Source: an uncultured Acidimicrobiia bacterium
GTDB taxonomy: Bacteria; Actinomycetota; Acidimicrobiia; Acidimicrobiales; AC-14
DNA length: 64,000 nt
NCBI GenBank assembly: GCA_963836205.1
Contig: CAWIIV010000014.1
Coordinates: 160,001-224,000, forward strand
Reading direction: 5' to 3'
In this document: positions 3,452 through 16,455 of the stretch, one piece after another
How the letters are laid out: every line of letters starts with the position of its first letter
Position numbering within the stretch: position 1 is the stretch's first letter
The notes under the pieces: generated by a model
What the model was told of the DNA's origin: nothing
The model's input: only the letters and a program-made list of their open reading frames with translations
The model's database searches: none
Made by a program: the position numbers and the translations under genes

Positions 3452-4477
3452 TCAGAACTGTTCCAGGAAGCGGATGTCGTTCGAGATGAAGTGGCGGATG
3501 TCGTCGACGTCGTGGCGGAGCATGGCGCAGCGGTCGATCCCGAAGCCGAAGGCGAAGCCCTGCCACTCCTCGGGGTCGATACCGACGGCCTCGAACACGT
3601 TGGGGTCGACCATCCCGCAGCCGCCCAGCTCGATCCAGCCCGACTGCGAGCACACCCGGCACCCCTTGCCCTCGCAGAAGATGCACGTCACCTCGAACTC
3701 GGCCGAGGGCTCGGTGAACGGGAAGTACGACGGCCGCAGCCGGGACGTGATGTTGGGCCCGAAGTAGGCGGTGGTGAAGGCCTCGATGGTGCCGGCCATG
3801 TCGCCGAACGTGATCCCCCGGTCGACCACCAACCCCTCGATCTGGTGGAAGACGGGCAGGTGGCGGGCGTCGGGCGTGTCGCGGCGGTAGGTGCGGCCGG
3901 GGGCGACGATGTAGATCGGCGGCGGCTGCGACGTCATCACCCGGATCTGTACCGGCGACGTGTGGGTGCGTAGCAGGGTCGACTCGGGCTGGCCCAGCTT
4001 CACGTAGAGGGTGTCCCACATCCCCCGGGCGGGGTGGGCGGGGGGCATGTTGAGGGCCTCGAAGTTGTGCCAGTCGGTCTCCACCTCGGGGCCTTCGGCC
4101 ACCGAGTAGCCCATGCCGACGAAGACGTCCTCCAGCTGGCGGCGGGTCTGGTTGACCAGGTGGAGGTGGCCCCGGGGCGTCGCGCCCACCACCTCGGTGA
4201 GGTCGAGCCGGTCGGCGTGCAGACGCCGGTGCCGGTCGGCCGCCTCCAGCACCGCCCGCCGCTCGTCGATCGCGGCCGTCAGTGCCTGGCGGACGGCGTT
4301 GATGGCCCGGCCCGCGTCCTTGCGCTCCTCGGCCGGCATCGCCCCCAACTGCTGGTTGAGCCCGGAGAGGGCCGAGCGCTTGCCCAGCACCTCGGTGTCG
4401 ACGACCCGCAGCTCATCGAGCGTGCCCGCGCCCGCGATCCGGGCCAGACCCTTCTCCTCGACTTCCTCCGGCGTCAC
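3452..4477 (-). CDS. pheS: Phenylalanine--tRNA ligase alpha subunit
   Basis: HPARGMWDT, LRTHTSPVQIR, YFPFTEPS and GFAFGFGIDR motifs; GTG start overlaps the upstream stop (GTGA). Confidence 0.97.
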   Translation of the reverse strand: MTPEEVEEKGLARIAGAGTLDELRVVDTEVLGKRSALSGLNQQLGAMPAEERKDAGRAINAVRQALTAAIDERRAVLEAADRHRRLHADRLDLTEVVGATPRGHLHLVNQTRRQLEDVFVGMGYSVAEGPEVETDWHNFEALNMPPAHPARGMWDTLYVKLGQPESTLLRTHTSPVQIRVMTSQPPPIYIVAPGRTYRRDTPDARHLPVFHQIEGLVVDRGITFGDMAGTIEAFTTAYFGPNITSRLRPSYFPFTEPSAEFEVTCIFCEGKGCRVCSQSGWIELGGCGMVDPNVFEAVGIDPEEWQGFAFGFGIDRCAMLRHDVDDIRHFISNDIRFLEQF

Positions 4478-5547
4478 AGGAGCTCCTCGGGGACGGCCGT
4501 CGGGAGCGTGAAGCGGAACGTCGAGCCGACGCCCACCACCGACTCCACCACCAGCCGGCCGCCGTGGGCCTCGACCAGGCCTCGACTGATCCACAGGCCC
4601 AGGCCCGAGCCGGAGGGCCGGGTCTCGGCCCGCCGGTAGAACTTGGTGAACACGCGGGGCAGGTCGGACTCGGGGATGCCCTCGCCCTGGTCGACGACGG
4701 CCACCGTGACCTCGCCGTCGACGATCCGGCCCAGCACCCGCACGCCCTTGGGGTCGGCGTACTTGGCCGCGTTCTCCACCAGGTTGGTCAGCACCTGCTC
4801 GATCTTGTCGGGATCGGCGTAGACCTGCGGGAAATTTTCGTCGAAGTCGACCTCGGCACTCACCTCGGCCTCGATCATCCGTACCTTGTCGACCACCACC
4901 ACCACCAGCTTGGCCAGGTCGACCATCTGCCGGCGCAGCACAAGGCGGCCGCTCTCCAGCCGGCTGATGTCGAGCAGCTCGGTTACCAGGCGGGTGACGC
5001 GGTCGGCGTCGTGGTGCACCTGCTCCAGCATCATCAGCTTCTGCTCGTCGGCCAGCCGGTCCCAGCGGTTGAGGAGCAGGCTGGTGTAGCCCTTCACCGA
5101 CGTGAGGGGCGAGCGCAGCTCGTGGCTGACGGTGGAGATGACCTCGATGCCCTGGGCCGCCGCCTGCCGGCGGCGGGTGCCGTCGCGGAGCACCATCACT
5201 GCGCCCCGCACCCGACCGTCGGGCCCCCGCTCGTAGCGTCCGGTGAGCATCACCCGCACCTCGGTGCCGTCGGCCGCCCGCAGCCGCACCTCGTGTTCGG
5301 GGATGCGGGCCACCGACACCAACCGGGTCGACCGGTGCCACCCCTCGGCCAGCAGCCATTCCCCGTCGGCCCCCCGGGGGGCCAGGACCCCGTTGACGTC
5401 GCGGCCCACGATCTCGTCCGCCGGGTAGCCGAGGAGGGCGACGAACGCGGTGTTGACCGCCCGCACCCGGCGGTCGGCGTCGCACTCCAGCACGGCGTCG
5501 GGCAACCGGTCGAGCTCGTCCCGTCCGGACGGCACGGGAACGCTCAT
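4474..5547 (-). CDS. PAS-domain sensor histidine kinase (cytoplasmic)
   Basis: N-terminal PAS-like region, H-box SHELRSPLT, N-box NLVENAAKY, DQGEGI and GSGLGL boxes. Confidence 0.9.
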   Translation of the reverse strand: MSVPVPSGRDELDRLPDAVLECDADRRVRAVNTAFVALLGYPADEIVGRDVNGVLAPRGADGEWLLAEGWHRSTRLVSVARIPEHEVRLRAADGTEVRVMLTGRYERGPDGRVRGAVMVLRDGTRRRQAAAQGIEVISTVSHELRSPLTSVKGYTSLLLNRWDRLADEQKLMMLEQVHHDADRVTRLVTELLDISRLESGRLVLRRQMVDLAKLVVVVVDKVRMIEAEVSAEVDFDENFPQVYADPDKIEQVLTNLVENAAKYADPKGVRVLGRIVDGEVTVAVVDQGEGIPESDLPRVFTKFYRRAETRPSGSGLGLWISRGLVEAHGGRLVVESVVGVGSTFRFTLPTAVPEELL

Positions 5548-6344
5548 GTGGCGCGCTGGCGGGCCGCCTCGAAGCACAGGACGGCGGCGGCCATTCCGAC
5601 GTTGAGCGAGTCCCCCCGCCCGGCCATGGGGATGGTCACCGTCTCGTCGACCAGCCGGTCGAGCGCCGCCGGCAGGCCGGCGGCCTCGTTGCCGAGGACG
5701 ATGGCGGTGGGACGGGCCAGGTCGGCCTGGTGGTACGCCTGCCCGCCTGCGGGCCGGGTGGCCATGCGGTGCAGTCCCCACTCGCCCAGCGTCGCCAGCA
5801 CCTCCTCGGGCTCCCCTCCTGCAACGACACGGACGTGGAACAGCGAACCTGCCGACGCCCGGACGGTCTTCGGGTTGTAGACGTCGACGGTGCCGTCACA
5901 GCAGATTACCCCGCCCACCCCCGCTGCCTCCGCCGTACGCAGCACCGTGCCCAGGTTGCCGGGATCGCGGACGTCGACGCACACCACCACCAGGTCGGCC
6001 CCCCGCAGGGTGTCGAGGGCGACGTCGACGTACGGGGCGACGGCCAGCACCGGCTGGGGAGTGACCGTGCCCGCCACCCGCTCCAGGACTCCCGGGCCCA
6101 GGTCGGACGCCCGGATGCCCGCGGCGAGGGCCCGTTCGACGACGGCGTTGTCGGCCCCTCCCGGGGGCAGGTAGAGCGACTCGATGGCCGCGCCCGCGGC
6201 GAGGGCGGCGTCGAGGACCTTCAGGGAGTCGACCACGAACGCCCGCTCCGCCTCGCGGGCGGTGTGGCGTTGCACCAGCTTCCGCACCCGCTGCACCCGC
6301 TTGTGCTTGAACCCCAGCCCGTTCCCCGGGAGGGGGGCGGTCAC
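5544..6344 (-). CDS. TrmH/SpoU family RNA methyltransferase
   Basis: DPGNLGTVLRTA, LGNEAAGL and SLNVGMAAAV SPOUT motifs; start approximate. Confidence 0.92.
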   Translation of the reverse strand: MTAPLPGNGLGFKHKRVQRVRKLVQRHTAREAERAFVVDSLKVLDAALAAGAAIESLYLPPGGADNAVVERALAAGIRASDLGPGVLERVAGTVTPQPVLAVAPYVDVALDTLRGADLVVVCVDVRDPGNLGTVLRTAEAAGVGGVICCDGTVDVYNPKTVRASAGSLFHVRVVAGGEPEEVLATLGEWGLHRMATRPAGGQAYHQADLARPTAIVLGNEAAGLPAALDRLVDETVTIPMAGRGDSLNVGMAAAVLCFEAARQRAT

Positions 6345-11567: not shown

Positions 11568-12592
11568 GTTGGCTCCAGCTCGATGCGCAGATCGTCGCCC
11601 AGGCGGGTGACGGACACGATGCGGCCCCGCCACACGTCGTCGATGGTGGCCGCGCCGGGGCCGGCGAGGAGGGGACGGCCGTCGTCGCCGCCGGCCAGGG
11701 CGGGGGCGAGGTAGATCACGTAGCGGTCGACCAGCCCCGCCCGGTGGAACTCGCCGGCCACGGTGGGCCCGCCCTCGACCAGGACCTGGAGGGCGCCGAG
11801 GCCGCCGAGGTGGTCGAGGATCGGGCCGAGTTCGCCTTCGAGCTCGAGCGCGGGATGGACCTTGGCGCCCTCGGGGGCGTGGCCGAGGACGACCCGGAGG
11901 GGGTCCGTGCCGGCGACGTGGCGGACGGTGAGGGACGGGTCGTCGGCCCGGACGGTGCCGGCGCCGACGATGACGGCGTCGCTCTCGGCCCGGAGGCGGT
12001 GGGCGTCGGCCCGGGCCGCCTCGCCGGTGATCCACCGGCTGGAGCCGTCGGCGGCGGCGGTGCGCCCGTCGAGGGTGGCGGCCAGCTTGAGGACCACGTA
12101 GGGCCGGCCGGTGGTGCGGTGCCTGAGGTAGGGGGCGAGCTGGGCCCGCACCTCGTCGGCCCGGAGGCCGACGTCGACCTGGATGCCGGCTGACCGGAGC
12201 CGGGCGATACCGGCCCCCCGCACGCTGGGGTCGGGGTCCTCGATGGCGACGACCACCCGGGCGATGTCGGCGGCGATGATGGCGTCGGCGCACGGCGGGG
12301 TGCGGCCGAAGTGGGAGCACGGCTCGAGGGTCGTGTAGAGGGTGGCCCGTTCGGCGTGGGTGCCGGCCGCGTCGAGGGCGACGACCTCGGCGTGGTACCC
12401 GCCCGGGGGCTGGGTGGCCCCCTCGTAGCCGCCCGGCTCGATCACGCACCCCACCCACGGGTTGGGCGACGTGGACGTCCGCACTCCTGCCGCCAGGGCG
12501 ATGGCCCGGTCCATGGCCGCCTCGTCGCCGTCACGGGCCGGGTCATGTCGGTCGAGTGTGCGGAAATGTACGAAATGTGTACGTTCTCGCAC
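11552..12592 (-). CDS. ribD: Riboflavin deaminase/reductase (start uncertain, possibly ATG near 12514)
   Basis: SPNPWVGCVI, HAEVVAL, TLEPCSHFGRTPPC, KLAATLDG and VEGGPT motifs. Confidence 0.93.
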   Translation of the reverse strand: MRERTHFVHFRTLDRHDPARDGDEAAMDRAIALAAGVRTSTSPNPWVGCVIEPGGYEGATQPPGGYHAEVVALDAAGTHAERATLYTTLEPCSHFGRTPPCADAIIAADIARVVVAIEDPDPSVRGAGIARLRSAGIQVDVGLRADEVRAQLAPYLRHRTTGRPYVVLKLAATLDGRTAAADGSSRWITGEAARADAHRLRAESDAVIVGAGTVRADDPSLTVRHVAGTDPLRVVLGHAPEGAKVHPALELEGELGPILDHLGGLGALQVLVEGGPTVAGEFHRAGLVDRYVIYLAPALAGGDDGRPLLAGPGAATIDDVWRGRIVSVTRLGDDLRIELEPTCSPA

Positions 12593-12600
12593 ACTCGACC
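12550..12600. repeat. 51-bp palindromic hairpin
   Basis: Perfect 13-bp arms GGTCGAGTGTGCG / CGCACACTCGACC with further imperfect inner pairing. Confidence 0.85.
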
Positions 12601-12613
12601 TGGTGGGGGGCGG

Positions 12614-13090
12614 TCACGGGTGCTCCGTGGGGCGGCCGGCGAGGAGCTCGAGGGCGTGGGGCAGGACGTCGAGGACGGCCTCGAGGGTCTCCACCGACCC
12701 GGCCGTCGACCCCGGGGTGTTGAGGACGATGGCGGTGCCGACGGTGCCCGCCGCGGCCCGGGACAGGCGGCCCTTGTCGGGGTTGGTCGCCCGCATGGCC
12801 TCGGCCAGGCCGGGGGCGTGGCGGTCGAGGACGGCGACGGTGCCCTCGGGCGTGAGGTCGCGGGGTCCGAAGCCGGTGCCGCCGGTAGTAACCACCAGCC
12901 CCGCGAACCCGGCGGTGAGGCGGCGGAGGGCGTCGGCCACCGAATCGGTGCCGTCGGCCACGACCTCGTGGCTGACCACGTCGTAGCCGGCGGCCGTCAG
13001 CCGCTCGACCAGGGCCGCGCCCGACTTGTCCTGCCGGGTGCCGCCGACCACGCCGTCGGAGACGGTCAGCACCTTGGCCTGGAGGGTCAT
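12614..13090 (-). CDS. MogA/MoaB family molybdenum cofactor biosynthesis protein (present ATG lies at the intron 3' end; original GTG at 15029-15027)
   Basis: VLTVSD, DKSG, VVTTGGTGFGPRDLTPE and LNTPGS motifs. Confidence 0.92.
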   Translation of the reverse strand: MTLQAKVLTVSDGVVGGTRQDKSGAALVERLTAAGYDVVSHEVVADGTDSVADALRRLTAGFAGLVVTTGGTGFGPRDLTPEGTVAVLDRHAPGLAEAMRATNPDKGRLSRAAAGTVGTAIVLNTPGSTAGSVETLEAVLDVLPHALELLAGRPTEHP

Positions 13091-13096
13091 TGGTTG

Positions 13097-13198
13097 TCAG
13101 GGGCGCGCCGCTCGCTGACGAGCACGTTTCCCCCTCCCCCTTTCGATTCCGTGCGTGCGGTTTTCCCGCACACGGCTCACCGATGGTCTTCTGGACAT
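13097..13198 (-). CDS. 33-aa mini-ORF spanning intron domains V-VI (MSRRPSVSRVRENRTHGIERGRGKRARQRAARP)
   Basis: ATG 2 nt after the RT stop; TGA 6 nt before the mogA ATG; translation not demonstrated. Confidence 0.35.
   Translation of the reverse strand: MSRRPSVSRVRENRTHGIERGRGKRARQRAARP
13145..13178 (-). ncRNA. Group II intron catalytic domain V
   Basis: AGC triad, TGCGG-GAAAA-CCGCA upper stem-loop, CG bulge. Confidence 0.9.
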
Positions 13199-13200
13199 GG

Positions 13201-14541
13201 TTACGCAGCCTTCGGGTAACGGATGGTGCCCATGAGCTGGTGCAGGCCCTGGTCGTGGAACCAGGCGTGCGTCCAACGCTCGGCCTGGCCGGCTCGCAGG
13301 TTGCGGCCCCGCTTCTTGATCAAGAGGCGCTTGAGCCGCCACACGACGTGCCGGTCGAGGGAGACGAACTTGTCGGCCGCGTTCCCGGTGCGGAAGTAGT
13401 TGCCCCATCCCCGAAGGAACAGGTTGAGGTCGTCGATCACGTCCTCCAACTCCAAACCGAGCCGGCTCCGACCGGTGAGGGCCTTGATTCGCAGTCGTGC
13501 CCGCTTCATGGACCGCTGTGACGGCCACCGGTGCAGGTAGTAGCGGACGATGCGCCGCTGCTCCCACAGGCGACCCGACATGCGGGCGTGAAGGTGACAG
13601 CCCAGGAAGTCGAAGCCCTCCTTGCCCTCCCGAAGATCGACCACGCGGGTCTTGTCCGGGTGCAGGCTCAGACCGAGGTCGCCCAACATGGCGGCTGCCC
13701 GCAATTGAGCTTCATCGGCTTGTTCCCGGGTCGTGCACAACACCACGAAGTCGTCCGCGTAGCGGACGAGCTCGCCGGTGCCGGACTCGGCCCAGGACCG
13801 GTCGAAGGCGTGCAGGTAGACGTTGGCCAGCAGCGGGGAGATGACCCCGCCCTGGGGCGTGCCCGTGACCGTCTCGGAGCGCACCCCCTCGACCAGCACC
13901 CCTGCACGCAGCCACTGGCGGATGAGCTTGAGCACCCGCCGGTCCGAGACGCGCCGTTCGACCTCGACCAGGAGGCGGTCGTGGTCGATCTGGCCGAAGA
14001 AGTCGCGGATGTCGGCCTCGAAGACGAACTGCCGTCCTCGGGGGAACGCCACCCGGATGGCTTCCAGGGCGTCGGTGGCCGAGCGCTTCGGTCGGAAACC
14101 GAAGCTGGTCGGCAGGAAGTCGGCCTCGAAGATGGGCTCGAGGACGATCTTGGCTGCCGCCTGGCACACCCGGTCGCGCACGGTGGGGATGCCCAGGGGC
14201 CGCATCCGGCCGTCGGGCTTGGGGATCTCCACCCGGCGCACAGGTGCCGGGCGGTAGTTGCCTGCACGGAGGTCACGGGAAAGCTCGTCGAGCATGCGCC
14301 CGACCCCGTAGTCCTCCACCGCCTCCAGGGTCAGACGATCGACCCCGGCGGCGCCACGATTGGCTCGGACCCGCCTCCACGCCTCCCACAGGACGTCACT
14401 CCGGTGGATGCGGTCGTACAGGGCGTGGAAGCGGCGACCCGGAGACTGCTTGGCCGCAGCCCATAGCCGGTTCTGGAGTTTTCGCACGTTGTCGACGGGC
14501 GTCTGCCCGGCGGGGGATTTGGACCGGGCGGTCCCGGCCAT
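13201..14541 (-). CDS. ltrA: Group II intron reverse transcriptase/maturase, no C-terminal endonuclease domain
   Basis: GAAGVD, IPKPDGRMRPLGIPTVRDR, GTPQGGVISPLLAN, YADD, FDFLG and LRGWGNYF; ends soon after domain X; start chosen at ATG 14541. Confidence 0.95.
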   Translation of the reverse strand: MAGTARSKSPAGQTPVDNVRKLQNRLWAAAKQSPGRRFHALYDRIHRSDVLWEAWRRVRANRGAAGVDRLTLEAVEDYGVGRMLDELSRDLRAGNYRPAPVRRVEIPKPDGRMRPLGIPTVRDRVCQAAAKIVLEPIFEADFLPTSFGFRPKRSATDALEAIRVAFPRGRQFVFEADIRDFFGQIDHDRLLVEVERRVSDRRVLKLIRQWLRAGVLVEGVRSETVTGTPQGGVISPLLANVYLHAFDRSWAESGTGELVRYADDFVVLCTTREQADEAQLRAAAMLGDLGLSLHPDKTRVVDLREGKEGFDFLGCHLHARMSGRLWEQRRIVRYYLHRWPSQRSMKRARLRIKALTGRSRLGLELEDVIDDLNLFLRGWGNYFRTGNAADKFVSLDRHVVWRLKRLLIKKRGRNLRAGQAERWTHAWFHDQGLHQLMGTIRYPKAA

Positions 14542-15036
14542 GCCCTTGTGCTTACCCCCATCGTCGGCGTGACCAAAGTCGGGGCCCTTCCCGCCGGCTG
14601 GCGGTACTACGACCCCGTCGGACTCCCGCTGCGCTCCGCTCGATTTCACCACTGGCTTATACGAGCGGTCTTTGCTGACGAGGCTGCGCAGACGGGTCTC
14701 TCCCCTTCCGAACCTGACCTTGCGTACGTGCCGCTCCCCATACCCCGGGGGGACCCGACCAGGGGCATTCCGGAACGCCAGTCGGTCGGACGTGGGCCTT
14801 GGCCGTGACATGAGCGGCTCGGCTCCCCCGTTGTACATCTGACGAGGCTGCAGGACTCACGCCTGGTGGCGCTACGGCCCGCACGCTTGCTCCCTCCGAA
14901 GAGGCTCTTGACGCCCCGCTCAGCCCGCCGCCTCTCGGCGACGAACCGGGGCCTGCTACCGGGCTCTCCGGCGATTACCCGGGCGGGACTCACACCCGCT
15001 GGTCTGGTCCAGCTTCGAGGACGCACCACGGCCCCG

Positions 15037-15042
15037 ATGGTA
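15037..15042 (-). promoter_or_regulatory. Putative -10 element (TACCAT) of a leaderless mogA/intron transcript
   Basis: TANNNT hexamer 7 nt before the GTG at 15029, the same geometry as at mihF, aroC, priA and the ArsR gene. Confidence 0.55.
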
Positions 15043-15072
15043 GGTGCCCGATCGTTTGCGACGGCTCGGCGG

Positions 15073-15949
15073 TCACGTCCCCAGGCGTTCGCCCGGCTGG
15101 AGGCGGGCCCCGTTGCGCCAGGCGGCGGCCGGCTGCGCGCCCTTTCCCTCCGGTCGCACCTCCACCAGGGTGAGCGCCCCTCCCCCGCCGGTGCCCACGT
15201 CGAGGGTGGACGGGTCGAGCTCGCCCGCGGCCAGCCCCCGGCCCTCGACCGCGGCCAACGACGCCCGGGGCACGAGGAGTCGCCTGCCCCGGAACGTCGT
15301 CCACGCCTGGCCCAACCGCACCACCCGGTGAAGGTGCTCGGCCGACCGTGTCCAGTCGAGGTGGTGCTCCTCGGGTTCGATCTTGGCCGCGTAGGTGGTC
15401 TCCCCGACCTGGGGCGTCGGATTCCGGCAGGCCCTCGGCCAGCAGGCGCACGAGCAGTTCCGTCCCCTCGGCCGACAGCGCCGTCCGCAGCTCGTCGAGG
15501 GTGGCGTCGGGGCCGATCGGGTGCTCGACCGACGCGTAGACGGGGCCGGTGTCGAGTCCCTCCTCCAGGGCCATGACGCACACTCCCGTGACGTCGTCGC
15601 CGGCGAGGATGGCTCGCTCCACCGGCGCCGCCCCCCGCCAGCGGGGCAGGAGGGAGAAGTGGAGGTTCACCATGGGCAGGGCGTCGAGGACGTGGGGCTT
15701 GATCAGCCGGCCGTAGGCGACGACCACGCCCAGCTCGGCACCGACGCCGAGCACGTCGTCGACCTTGTCGGTGACGGGCAGGCCGAGCTCGCTGGCGGCC
15801 GCCTTCACCGGGCTGGGCAGCAGGGCACCACCCCGTCCCCGGCGCCGGTCGGGACGGCTCACCACCAGGGCGACGTCGTGGCCCGCGTCGACCAGCGCCC
15901 GTAGCGGGCCCACGGCGACCTCGGGCGTCCCCAGGAACGCCAGCCGCAC
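15073..15949 (-). CDS. fmt: Methionyl-tRNA formyltransferase (apparent frameshift near 15421)
   Basis: VRLAFLGTPE, VVAYG, NLHFSLLPRWRGAAP and LDTGP; C-terminus PQVGETTYAAKI...VRPEGK is in another frame. Confidence 0.93.
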
Positions 15950-16455
15950 TAGACGCCGGCGATGCCGAGGGTGCGCTGGCGCAGGGCGCGCATGGCCTGC
16001 TTGCGCTGGACCGGGTCGAGCCGCTCCAGCAGCAGGATGCCGTCGAGGTGGTCGACCTCGTGCTGGAACATGCGGCCCAGGAGCTCGTCGCCCTCGATGG
16101 TGAGCGGCTTGCCGTCGACGTCGAACCCGGTGAGCAGCACCTGGCTGGGGCGCAGGATCGGCCAGTGGAGGTCGGGCACCGACAGGCAGCCCTCGACGTA
16201 CTCCCACTCCCCGTGGTGGTTGGTGAGGGTGGGGTTGACCACGATCCCCCAACCCGCCCCGTCCTGGATGTCGTAGACGAACATCCGCTTCTGGATGCCG
16301 ATCTGCGGTGCGGCCAGGCCCACGCCGGGCGCCTCGTACATGGTCTCCAGCATGTCGTCGGCCAGTCGCCGGAGGTCGGCGTCGAACTCGGTGACCTCCA
16401 AGGCGGGCTGCCGGAGGACGGGGTCGCCAAACGTGCGGATGGGAAAGAGAGCCAT
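15949..16455 (-). CDS. def: Peptide deformylase
   Basis: GVGLAAPQIG, EGCLS and QHEVDHLDG motifs. Confidence 0.97.
   Translation of the reverse strand: MALFPIRTFGDPVLRQPALEVTEFDADLRRLADDMLETMYEAPGVGLAAPQIGIQKRMFVYDIQDGAGWGIVVNPTLTNHHGEWEYVEGCLSVPDLHWPILRPSQVLLTGFDVDGKPLTIEGDELLGRMFQHEVDHLDGILLLERLDPVQRKQAMRALRQRTLGIAGV

Follow-up and report, generated by a model that had tools for sequence, protein, structure and literature searches.

An endonuclease-less group II intron with a terminal AUG, inserted directly behind the start codon of mogA

Results

We examined a 64,000-nucleotide stretch (hereafter the window) of contig CAWIIV010000014.1 (positions 160,001 to 224,000, forward strand; assembly GCA_963836205.1) from an uncultured Acidimicrobiia bacterium, in which a group II intron on the minus strand separates the start codon of mogA from the rest of the gene. 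The intron was found to end in AUG rather than in the AY (Y, pyrimidine) of group II introns, and it stands immediately behind a start codon. The observation is highly non-random, and sequence comparison with related copies and intron-free alleles establishes both the targeting of start codons (RTG, where R is A or G) and the AUG end. An initial annotation had described the insertion from the letters of the window, and every motif it quoted (TACCAT, cggggcc, GTG, GTGCG, the 3' end and ACC CTC CAG GCC AAG) was present on the minus strand. The 3' junction reads ...CCCCTGACAACCAATG up to position 13088, followed by ACC CTC CAG GCC AAG in a frame of the molybdopterin-binding MogA type. The features of the locus are collected in Table 1.

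The element has the GUGYG 5' end of group II introns, the domain I to IV structure, domains V and VI with a bulged A, and an open reading frame (ORF) for a reverse transcriptase (RT) and maturase in domain IV; the AY 3' end is absent, the last bases being UG (AAUG). Rfam model RF02003 (group-II-D1D4-4) matched over its full length at 15001-14867 with 91.1 bits (cut-off 49), and RF00029 (D5/D6) reached 30.5 bits at 13180-13081, under its cut-off of 40. The basal stem of domain I starts directly at the 5' end and shows a compensatory change between two subfamilies, and the whole 5' ribozyme part spans ~485 nt. Using RNAalifold on 30 copies, we recovered domains V and VI with compensatory changes at 12 of 25 pairs. 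In the domain VI tail, the bulged base is followed by CC and an unpaired AAUG, which leaves six bases after the bulged A and agrees with the branch point that the initial annotation had placed at -7. The conserved CUGAC of domain VI also creates an in-frame UGA three codons 5' of the terminal AUG (UGA CNA CCA AUG; 13097-13099, minus strand, in the window), which is seen in most copies and is missing from the Acidobacteriota-type ones. The intron ORF matched RVT_1 (E 3.7e-36) and GIIM (E 8.7e-16) and carries a YADD motif in its RT. A domain search found no endonuclease domain past GIIM, and the C-terminus follows 27 residues later; the protein was classed as endonuclease-less because no domain comes after these two.

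Table 1. Features of the intron-bearing mogA locus in the window
Feature	Position	Strand	Basis or remark
Upstream methionyl-tRNA formyltransferase-like gene, 3' part	15073..16000 (upper limit approximate)	-	ORF and domain search
-10-like hexamer TACCAT of mogA	15037..15042	-	Last bases CAT plus next C form the proposed intron-binding site 2 (IBS2); same position filled in intron-less alleles
Spacer cggggcc	15030-15036	-	7 bases between TACCAT and GTG
Native mogA start codon GTG	15027..15029	-	Final 3 bases of the 5' exon; with C 15030 forms IBS1
Group II intron, 1939 nt, GUGCG to CCAAUG	13088..15026	-	Sequence ends, Rfam, copies, empty sites
Intron 5' terminus GTGCG	15022-15026	-	Read directly from the sequence
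Proposed exon-binding site 2 (EBS2; GAUGU), internal loop of domain I	14835..14839	-	Covariation; invariant A opposite the last T of the hexamer
Proposed EBS1 (CAUG), hairpin loop CUCAUGUCA	14809..14812	-	Covariation; partner is C-G-U-G of the target
Proposed EBS3, U in GGGGUA-U-GGGG	14740..14740	-	Covariation; partner is A 13087, first base of the 3' exon
Intron-encoded protein, RT + maturase (X), no endonuclease domain	13201..14541	-	Start at ATG 14541 inferred; frame open back to 14838
Domain V	13145..13178	-	RNAalifold: 10 pairs, compensatory changes at 3
Domain VI	13092..13140	-	RNAalifold: bulged A 13094, two G-C pairs below
Intron-terminal AUG	13088..13090	-	Joined directly, in frame, to mogA codon 2
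3' exon: mogA codon 2 to stop, MoCF_biosynth domain	12614..13087	-	ORF and domain search

To place the boundaries, we compared the locus with intron-free sites; the genomes searched comprised 41 relatives, a public species collection and 401 genomes of the class. Four genomes of the same genus have mogA without the intron, and three of these read (T/C)AC(C/G)AT, 6-7 bases and then GTG|ACCCTG or GTG|AACCTG (TACCATcgccccGTG|ACCCTG, CACGATcgtcgccGTG|ACCCTG and TACGATcggcggcGTG|AACCTG), the hexamer being TACCAT, TACGAT or CACGAT. Deleting 15026-13088 from the window yields a junction that matches these alleles, which bears out the earlier claim that removal leaves an intact in-frame gene. A further copy (L005) lies inside a histidine kinase gene, where its deletion restores GLGLSIVRAV|AKAHGGE. 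One intron-less mogA (L037, G003:C9) reads TACGATcggcACCAATG|AACCTG, as against TACGATcggcggcGTG|AACCTG in a relative, and seven of its bases equal the intron 3' end; this start may be the scar of an imprecise intron loss that kept the intron ATG as start codon, or the likeness may be due to chance.

Across the clade, the 68 distinct 3' ends were CCAATG (57), CCAGTG (6), CCCATG (3), CCTATG (1) and CCAACG (1), and thus RTG in 67 cases. The 5' ends were GTGCG at 25 sites, TTGCG at 24, TCGCG at 4 and TTGTG at 2, with a relaxed first base. The termini of the clade are hence non-canonical, (G/U)(U/C)GCG ... A(A/G)UG.

The initial annotation had proposed that the intron targets initiation codons, and the copies agree. 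In the window's own genome, eight copies were found, three identical and five 90% alike; all eight follow ATG or GTG, and CCAATG closes all seven whose 3' end is present. Two of them (L002, G000:C6, and L008, G000:C13) are 100% identical to the window intron, L008 being cut by a contig end, and the three identical copies were counted as support for recent mobility. L002 is preceded by TAGCGActggggcATG, and the frame downstream of it has only 19 codons. Among 58 distinct 5' junctions from all fetched loci, the flanking triplet was ATG in 36, GTG in 17 and TTG in 1, a start codon in 54 of 58; the other four were one degenerate copy and three weak matches to other introns. A TAnnnT box stands 6-8 nt 5' of the flanking codon in 54 of the 58 as well, and among the junctions scoring at least 60 (n = 52) both the start codon and the box were seen in 51.

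The composite motif TAnnnT-N5-8-RTG abuts the intron start at 55 of 80 loci. These come from at least ten phyla: Actinomycetota (including Embleya and a Mycobacterium simiae record), Chloroflexota, Gemmatimonadota, Myxococcota, Pseudomonadota, Acidobacteriota, Planctomycetota, Spirochaetota, Nitrospirota and one Melainabacteria metagenome-assembled genome. Named carriers of a copy include Embleya sp., Saccharopolyspora hattusasensis, Sorangium sp., Nannocystis pusilla and Pelomonas dachongensis. In a quick FastTree of the intron proteins, whose rows are kin, a branch with 99% local support splits 64 rows from a motif-less sister clade of 13 rows. On the 64-row side, 55 rows have the motif, 6 have no 5' sequence and 3 have no motif by pattern search; of these three, one is a twintron and another shows GACAAT instead of TAnnnT. 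YADD is present in each of the 58 start-codon-clade proteins whose motif is readable, and FADD in six sister-clade rows.

The sister clade has canonical AC ends (...GA-CCCUAC), flanks without RTG and likewise six bases after the bulged A. The candidate J2/3 is AGU in the start-codon clade, and at least two loci of the sister clade (L135, L132) share this AGU despite different last intron bases (G versus C), so that no gamma-gamma' pairing was assigned. In sister introns (L135, L140, L141, L148-L150 and others), ~100-150 nt are also inserted between domain V and the domain VI 3' strand, and a further hairpin stands just past the 5' end. At L087 (Saccharopolyspora hattusasensis record, ~3900-5950), domain V is broken after ...GCGGG by sequence beginning GTGTGTCCTGAAAGG; this appears to be a second group II intron nested inside the first, a twintron, with the outer 3' end ~2 kb beyond. 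Another copy (L077, 1169-3957) has 2789 nt, ~830 nt more than its relatives, and a weak second match to a 5' end at 1500.

To learn how the target might be read, we searched 39 distinct intron/site combinations for covariation and measured significance against 2000 shuffles. The base at EBS3, which follows GGGGUA in domain I, pairs with +1, the base that opens the 3' exon, in 36 of 39 combinations (shuffled mean 20.8; no shuffle reached 36). All four Watson-Crick kinds occur (C:G 15, U:A 12, G:C 4, A:U 2, with three U.G), and the three misses are divergent copies with one additional loop base. The fourth base of EBS1 pairs with position -4 in 38 of 39 (shuffled mean 26.5; equalled by none), its first C faces the start-codon G, and among the subfamilies located at GTG, four have C as the third EBS1 base. 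Six GUG 3' ends were seen (L009/L036, L079, L041/L042, L055), among full-length copies only together with EBS1 = CAC and GTG targets. For EBS2, position N5 pairs with hexamer position 5 in 35 of 39, N6 with position 4 in 31 and N3 with the base after the hexamer in 29, values that no shuffle reached, and an invariant A faces the last T of the hexamer. No pairing accounts for the invariant TA of the hexamer. EBS2, EBS1 and EBS3 together therefore set the insertion exactly between codon 1 and codon 2. By this comparison, the intron RNA reads its DNA target through three short pairings, and the target extends to the -10-like box, which EBS2 reads, a point absent from the initial annotation.

The genes behind the junctions likewise speak for initiation codons as the target, as had been proposed. 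At 55 of 65 sites, the frame that starts at the terminal RTG runs for 100 codons or more without a stop; the other two frames do so at 10 and 30 of 65, and for random RTGs in this GC-rich genome the figure is 47%. In ten of ten downstream proteins scanned (TrpS-type, cytidylyltransferase-like, RsmI-type methylase, AcpS, PdxS, LigA, QueA, PIG-L, HIT and ABC permease), the Pfam profile begins 1-19 residues past that RTG. A -10 box 6-9 nt before the start codon is the layout of leaderless genes under actinobacterial promoters. At the mogA target, the hexamer lies within the 6-8 nt of this layout and no Shine-Dalgarno sequence is present. In the window's genome, TAnnnT stands 6-7 nt upstream of only 662 of 226,097 RTG triplets (0.29%). 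Before RTGs at the head of ORFs with 150 codons or more, its counts at 6, 7, 8 and 9 nt are 204, 173, 140 and 87, compared with ~30 elsewhere. The hexamer belongs to the host, because intron-less alleles carry it and because of this genome-wide peak at ORF starts. We infer that the target genes are leaderless and that the hexamer is their promoter.

Decayed copies bear on the fate of the host gene when the ribozyme is lost. In one genome (G020, 95% complete), an intron before ligA has lost ~nt 163-494, and with them EBS1-3, domain II and domain III; the genome has a single LigA match, whose 700-codon frame starts at the intron ATG, its sole in-frame start, and a TGA in the same frame stands two codons before this ATG. 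In another (G330, 94% complete), the only ACPS-family match stands behind a relic of 128 nt, in which 38 nt of the intron 5' end remain together with domains V-VI; acpS is not in frame with the native ATG, and its sole in-frame start is the ATG brought by the intron. Open frames, from 60 to at least 180 codons long, also follow a relic of ~120 nt (L050) and the 5'-truncated L059, L060, L062 and L065. L059, L064 and L065 are all relics or 5'-truncated copies without a protein gene. The initial annotation had held that the host gene stays translatable without splicing; the dead relics before intact, single-copy ligA and acpS lend this indirect support. As to an outward promoter at the intron 3' end, no TAnnnT was seen 6-8 nt 5' of the terminal ATG. 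One idea only is that the purine-rich 5' strand of domain VI (GGGGGAG / GGAGAA) could act as a Shine-Dalgarno sequence brought close to the AUG by the domain VI hairpin.

Assembled contigs from four soil metatranscriptome runs (90% likeness) cover the intron in bins 13135 to 15048 and hardly any flank. They show only that intron-like sequence is present in RNA libraries, where DNA carry-over is possible, and are silent on junctions, RNA ends and strand. Around the locus, the TGA stop of the upstream methionyl-tRNA formyltransferase-like gene lies at 15075-15073, 30 nt 5' of the hexamer. At 12560-12614 (minus strand), an inverted repeat (GTCGAGTGTGCG ... CGCACACTCGAC) separates mogA from the next ORF, which looks RibD-like from its sequence.

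Discussion

The window intron is, in our judgement, quite probably an active copy of a mobile, endonuclease-less group II clade that homes to leaderless gene starts. The comparison shows EBS2 pairing with the last two or three bases of the TAnnnT hexamer and the following base, EBS1 (CAYN) with the RTG start codon plus the base that precedes it, and EBS3 with the first base of codon 2. The invariant TA may be read by the intron protein, or it may be retained for the needs of the promoter. The hexamer, as host promoter, would also drive transcription of the intron, and spliced transcripts would recover the native start codon. The last three intron bases are a start codon fused in frame to the host gene, and in unspliced RNA or dead relics the gene would be translated from this intron-borne RUG. 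Such translation would make insertion into housekeeping genes nearly harmless. The promoter reading and a function of the terminal RUG as a spare start codon are both well-motivated proposals.

The boundaries could be drawn in other ways. By the AY rule of group II introns, the intron would end in ..CCAAU and G 13088 would be the first base of the 3' exon, and the Rfam D5/D6 model does fit poorly at this intron. The empty sites refute this: the AU end with G in the exon is excluded because the empty alleles lack the extra G, showing GTGACC or GTGAAC rather than GTGGACC, and it would frameshift the histidine kinase at L005. The AUG end proposed in the initial annotation has thus withstood the comparison. 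A shift of both boundaries one base to the left (G+GUGCG...CCAAU) would likewise give an AU end, with insertion between U and G of the start codon, akin to Avi.groEL in its stop codon. It yields an identical product because G stands at both junctions, so that empty sites cannot separate the two readings. The first intron base of the AUG-end reading is indeed not conserved (G at 25 sites, U at 30), and the A of the J2/3 candidate AGU could pair with a terminal U. We reject the shift as very improbable on the covariation: the base that covaries with EBS3 (36 of 39, four pair types) would become +2 behind an invariant G at +1, while the 5' C of EBS1 faces the G of the start codon. The splice sites therefore lie after the flanking start-codon G and after the G of the terminal AUG. 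The shift would also make the penultimate base alternate between A and G, and the six bases past the bulged A in the sister clade agree with the AUG-end reading. The two RTG triplets, finally, might be taken for a 3-bp target-site duplication, given that most copies show ATG on both sides. This is refuted as well, since 10 of 42 full-length copies, the window copy included, are flanked by GTG or TTG and end in ATG, and the empty mogA alleles carry GTG.

Two other explanations accept the boundaries and differ on their meaning. The terminal RUG might be retained for a role in the ribozyme or in mobility, for example as an IBS1 mimic pairing with EBS1, with host genes dependent on splicing. The lack of a nearby Shine-Dalgarno sequence fits this, as does the occurrence of GUG ends in full-length copies only where EBS1 is CAC (L009/L036, L079), never CAU; one copy (L078) has CAC yet an AUG end. 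Against it, dead relics keep the RUG before intact single-copy ligA and acpS, and position -3 is only A or G in 67 of 68 ends. We regard this explanation as unlikely, if less so than the other, in which the association with start codons reflects the survival of harmless insertions instead of target choice and TAnnnT is merely a recognition motif and no promoter. In its favour, the internal kinase site L005 also has TATCGT-N7-GTG, and the motif is therefore usable by the ribonucleoprotein even where one would not look for a promoter. However, RTG and the hexamer are read through covarying base pairs, intron-free alleles carry the hexamer, and it is enriched at ORF starts genome-wide though the genome has only 8 intron copies. 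The survival explanation thus seems improbable to us.

Several observations count against homing to leaderless gene starts with a spare start codon. The copy at L005 follows an internal GTG of its histidine kinase gene, with TATCGT seven bases 5', and the ORFs downstream of L002, L043 and L146 have 19, 8 and 25 codons and are not gene starts. The intron copies are kin, and the counts overstate independence. EBS2 position N7 shows no covariation (20 of 39, reached by 781 of 2000 shuffles), and neither does hexamer position 3. The bulged base of domain VI is G, not A, in L059, L064 and L065. That the target genes are leaderless, and that translation begins at the terminal AUG, is deduced from sequence, and no Shine-Dalgarno sequence stands at normal distance before that AUG. 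A sigma-70 consensus scan of 12950-15250 found no promoter-like site, a result of little weight for this organism because the scan demands a -35 match. The relic cases come from metagenome-assembled genomes 94-95% complete, in which a second gene copy or an assembly error is possible. Finally, if transcripts begin at the start codon, the 5' exon would have 3 nt, and the second splicing step is hard to picture.

The initial annotation pointed to a few lineages, related to Avi.groEL, at start or stop codons. Such a lineage exists in print, and it is a different one. The monophyletic IIB1 clade of Michel et al. 2007, as summarised by Gomes et al. 2025 (PMC12584367), has endonuclease-positive CL1 proteins and a 300-700 nt 5'-subterminal insertion, and the Avi.groEL insertion converts the groEL UAA to UAG. 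The start- or stop-codon habit is common to both, and in both unspliced RNA keeps a working codon. In contrast to that clade as described there (PMC12584367), the window intron has RT and X only and no 5' insertion, and where the former has ordinary intron ends, the latter has a UG 3' end and a -10-like box in its target. The start-codon clade thus lacks two of the three defining features of the Avi.groEL clade and resembles it in the habit alone.

Insertion downstream of a terminator or an attC site characterises group IIC introns (class C), according to the review by Zimmerly and Semper 2015 (PMC4424553). As in the group IIC introns described there, our clade has no endonuclease, a short EBS1 pairing, and as target a generic functional motif present many times per genome, not one homing site. 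Whereas group IIC reads a DNA hairpin (PMC4424553), the start-codon clade reads a linear motif through EBS2, EBS1 and EBS3 at the start of coding. Its loci show TAnnnT-N6-8-RTG flanks and a covarying EBS2 in place of the terminator or attC hairpin without EBS2 of group IIC, with upstream hairpins not systematically searched. The same review describes B.c.I4-type introns in which an extra domain moves the 3' splice site by 50-70 nt (PMC4424553); our clade shares the departure from the AY boundary and, unlike these, keeps the normal branch-site spacing, only the last two bases differing. The endonuclease-less class F varieties g1-g4 include some without boundaries predictable by a standard tool (Toro and Martinez-Abarca 2013, PMC3552965), and insertion sites are not discussed in the portion of that paper available to us. 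They resemble our clade in their RT/maturase-only proteins, and the sister clade includes FADD proteins, as does g2. The start-codon clade has YADD, unlike g2 with FADD (PMC3552965). This motif only sets the clade beside g2-like sequences.

The relevant part of the 2015 review (PMC4424553) lists just three target specificities, homing sites, terminators and attC sites, none of them alike to the present one. Nor did the literature searched, from which key older papers fall out, describe endonuclease-less introns at start codons or a link between group II introns and leaderless genes. As far as this searchable literature goes, the habit of the lineage is undescribed.

Conclusions

A wider view, to which we give about an even chance, is that the clade constitutes a pan-bacterial RNA-guided retroelement specialised on the promoter/start-codon module of leaderless genes, a fourth specificity beside homing sites, terminators and attC. 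It would base-pair with the -10 box and the start codon, be transcribed, with a three-base 5' exon, from the promoter of the gene it invades, and carry a portable terminal start codon that keeps essential insertions (ligA, acpS, trpS, pdxS) viable after ribozyme decay.

The accepted view is that group II introns of bacteria stay out of housekeeping genes. The present clade occupies the first codon of ligA, trpS, acpS, pdxS, queA and mogA across many phyla, which suggests that a retroelement can make such gene-start sites safe by replacing the codon it displaces, and the terminal replacement start codon may explain residence in essential genes. For the ribozyme, the clade shows tolerance of a UG 3' end and of a first base other than G, and it raises the question of group II splicing with a 5' exon possibly three nucleotides long. 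The clade also exemplifies, in nature, RNA-guided insertion at gene starts, through pairings with a start codon and a promoter element that are short and retargetable.

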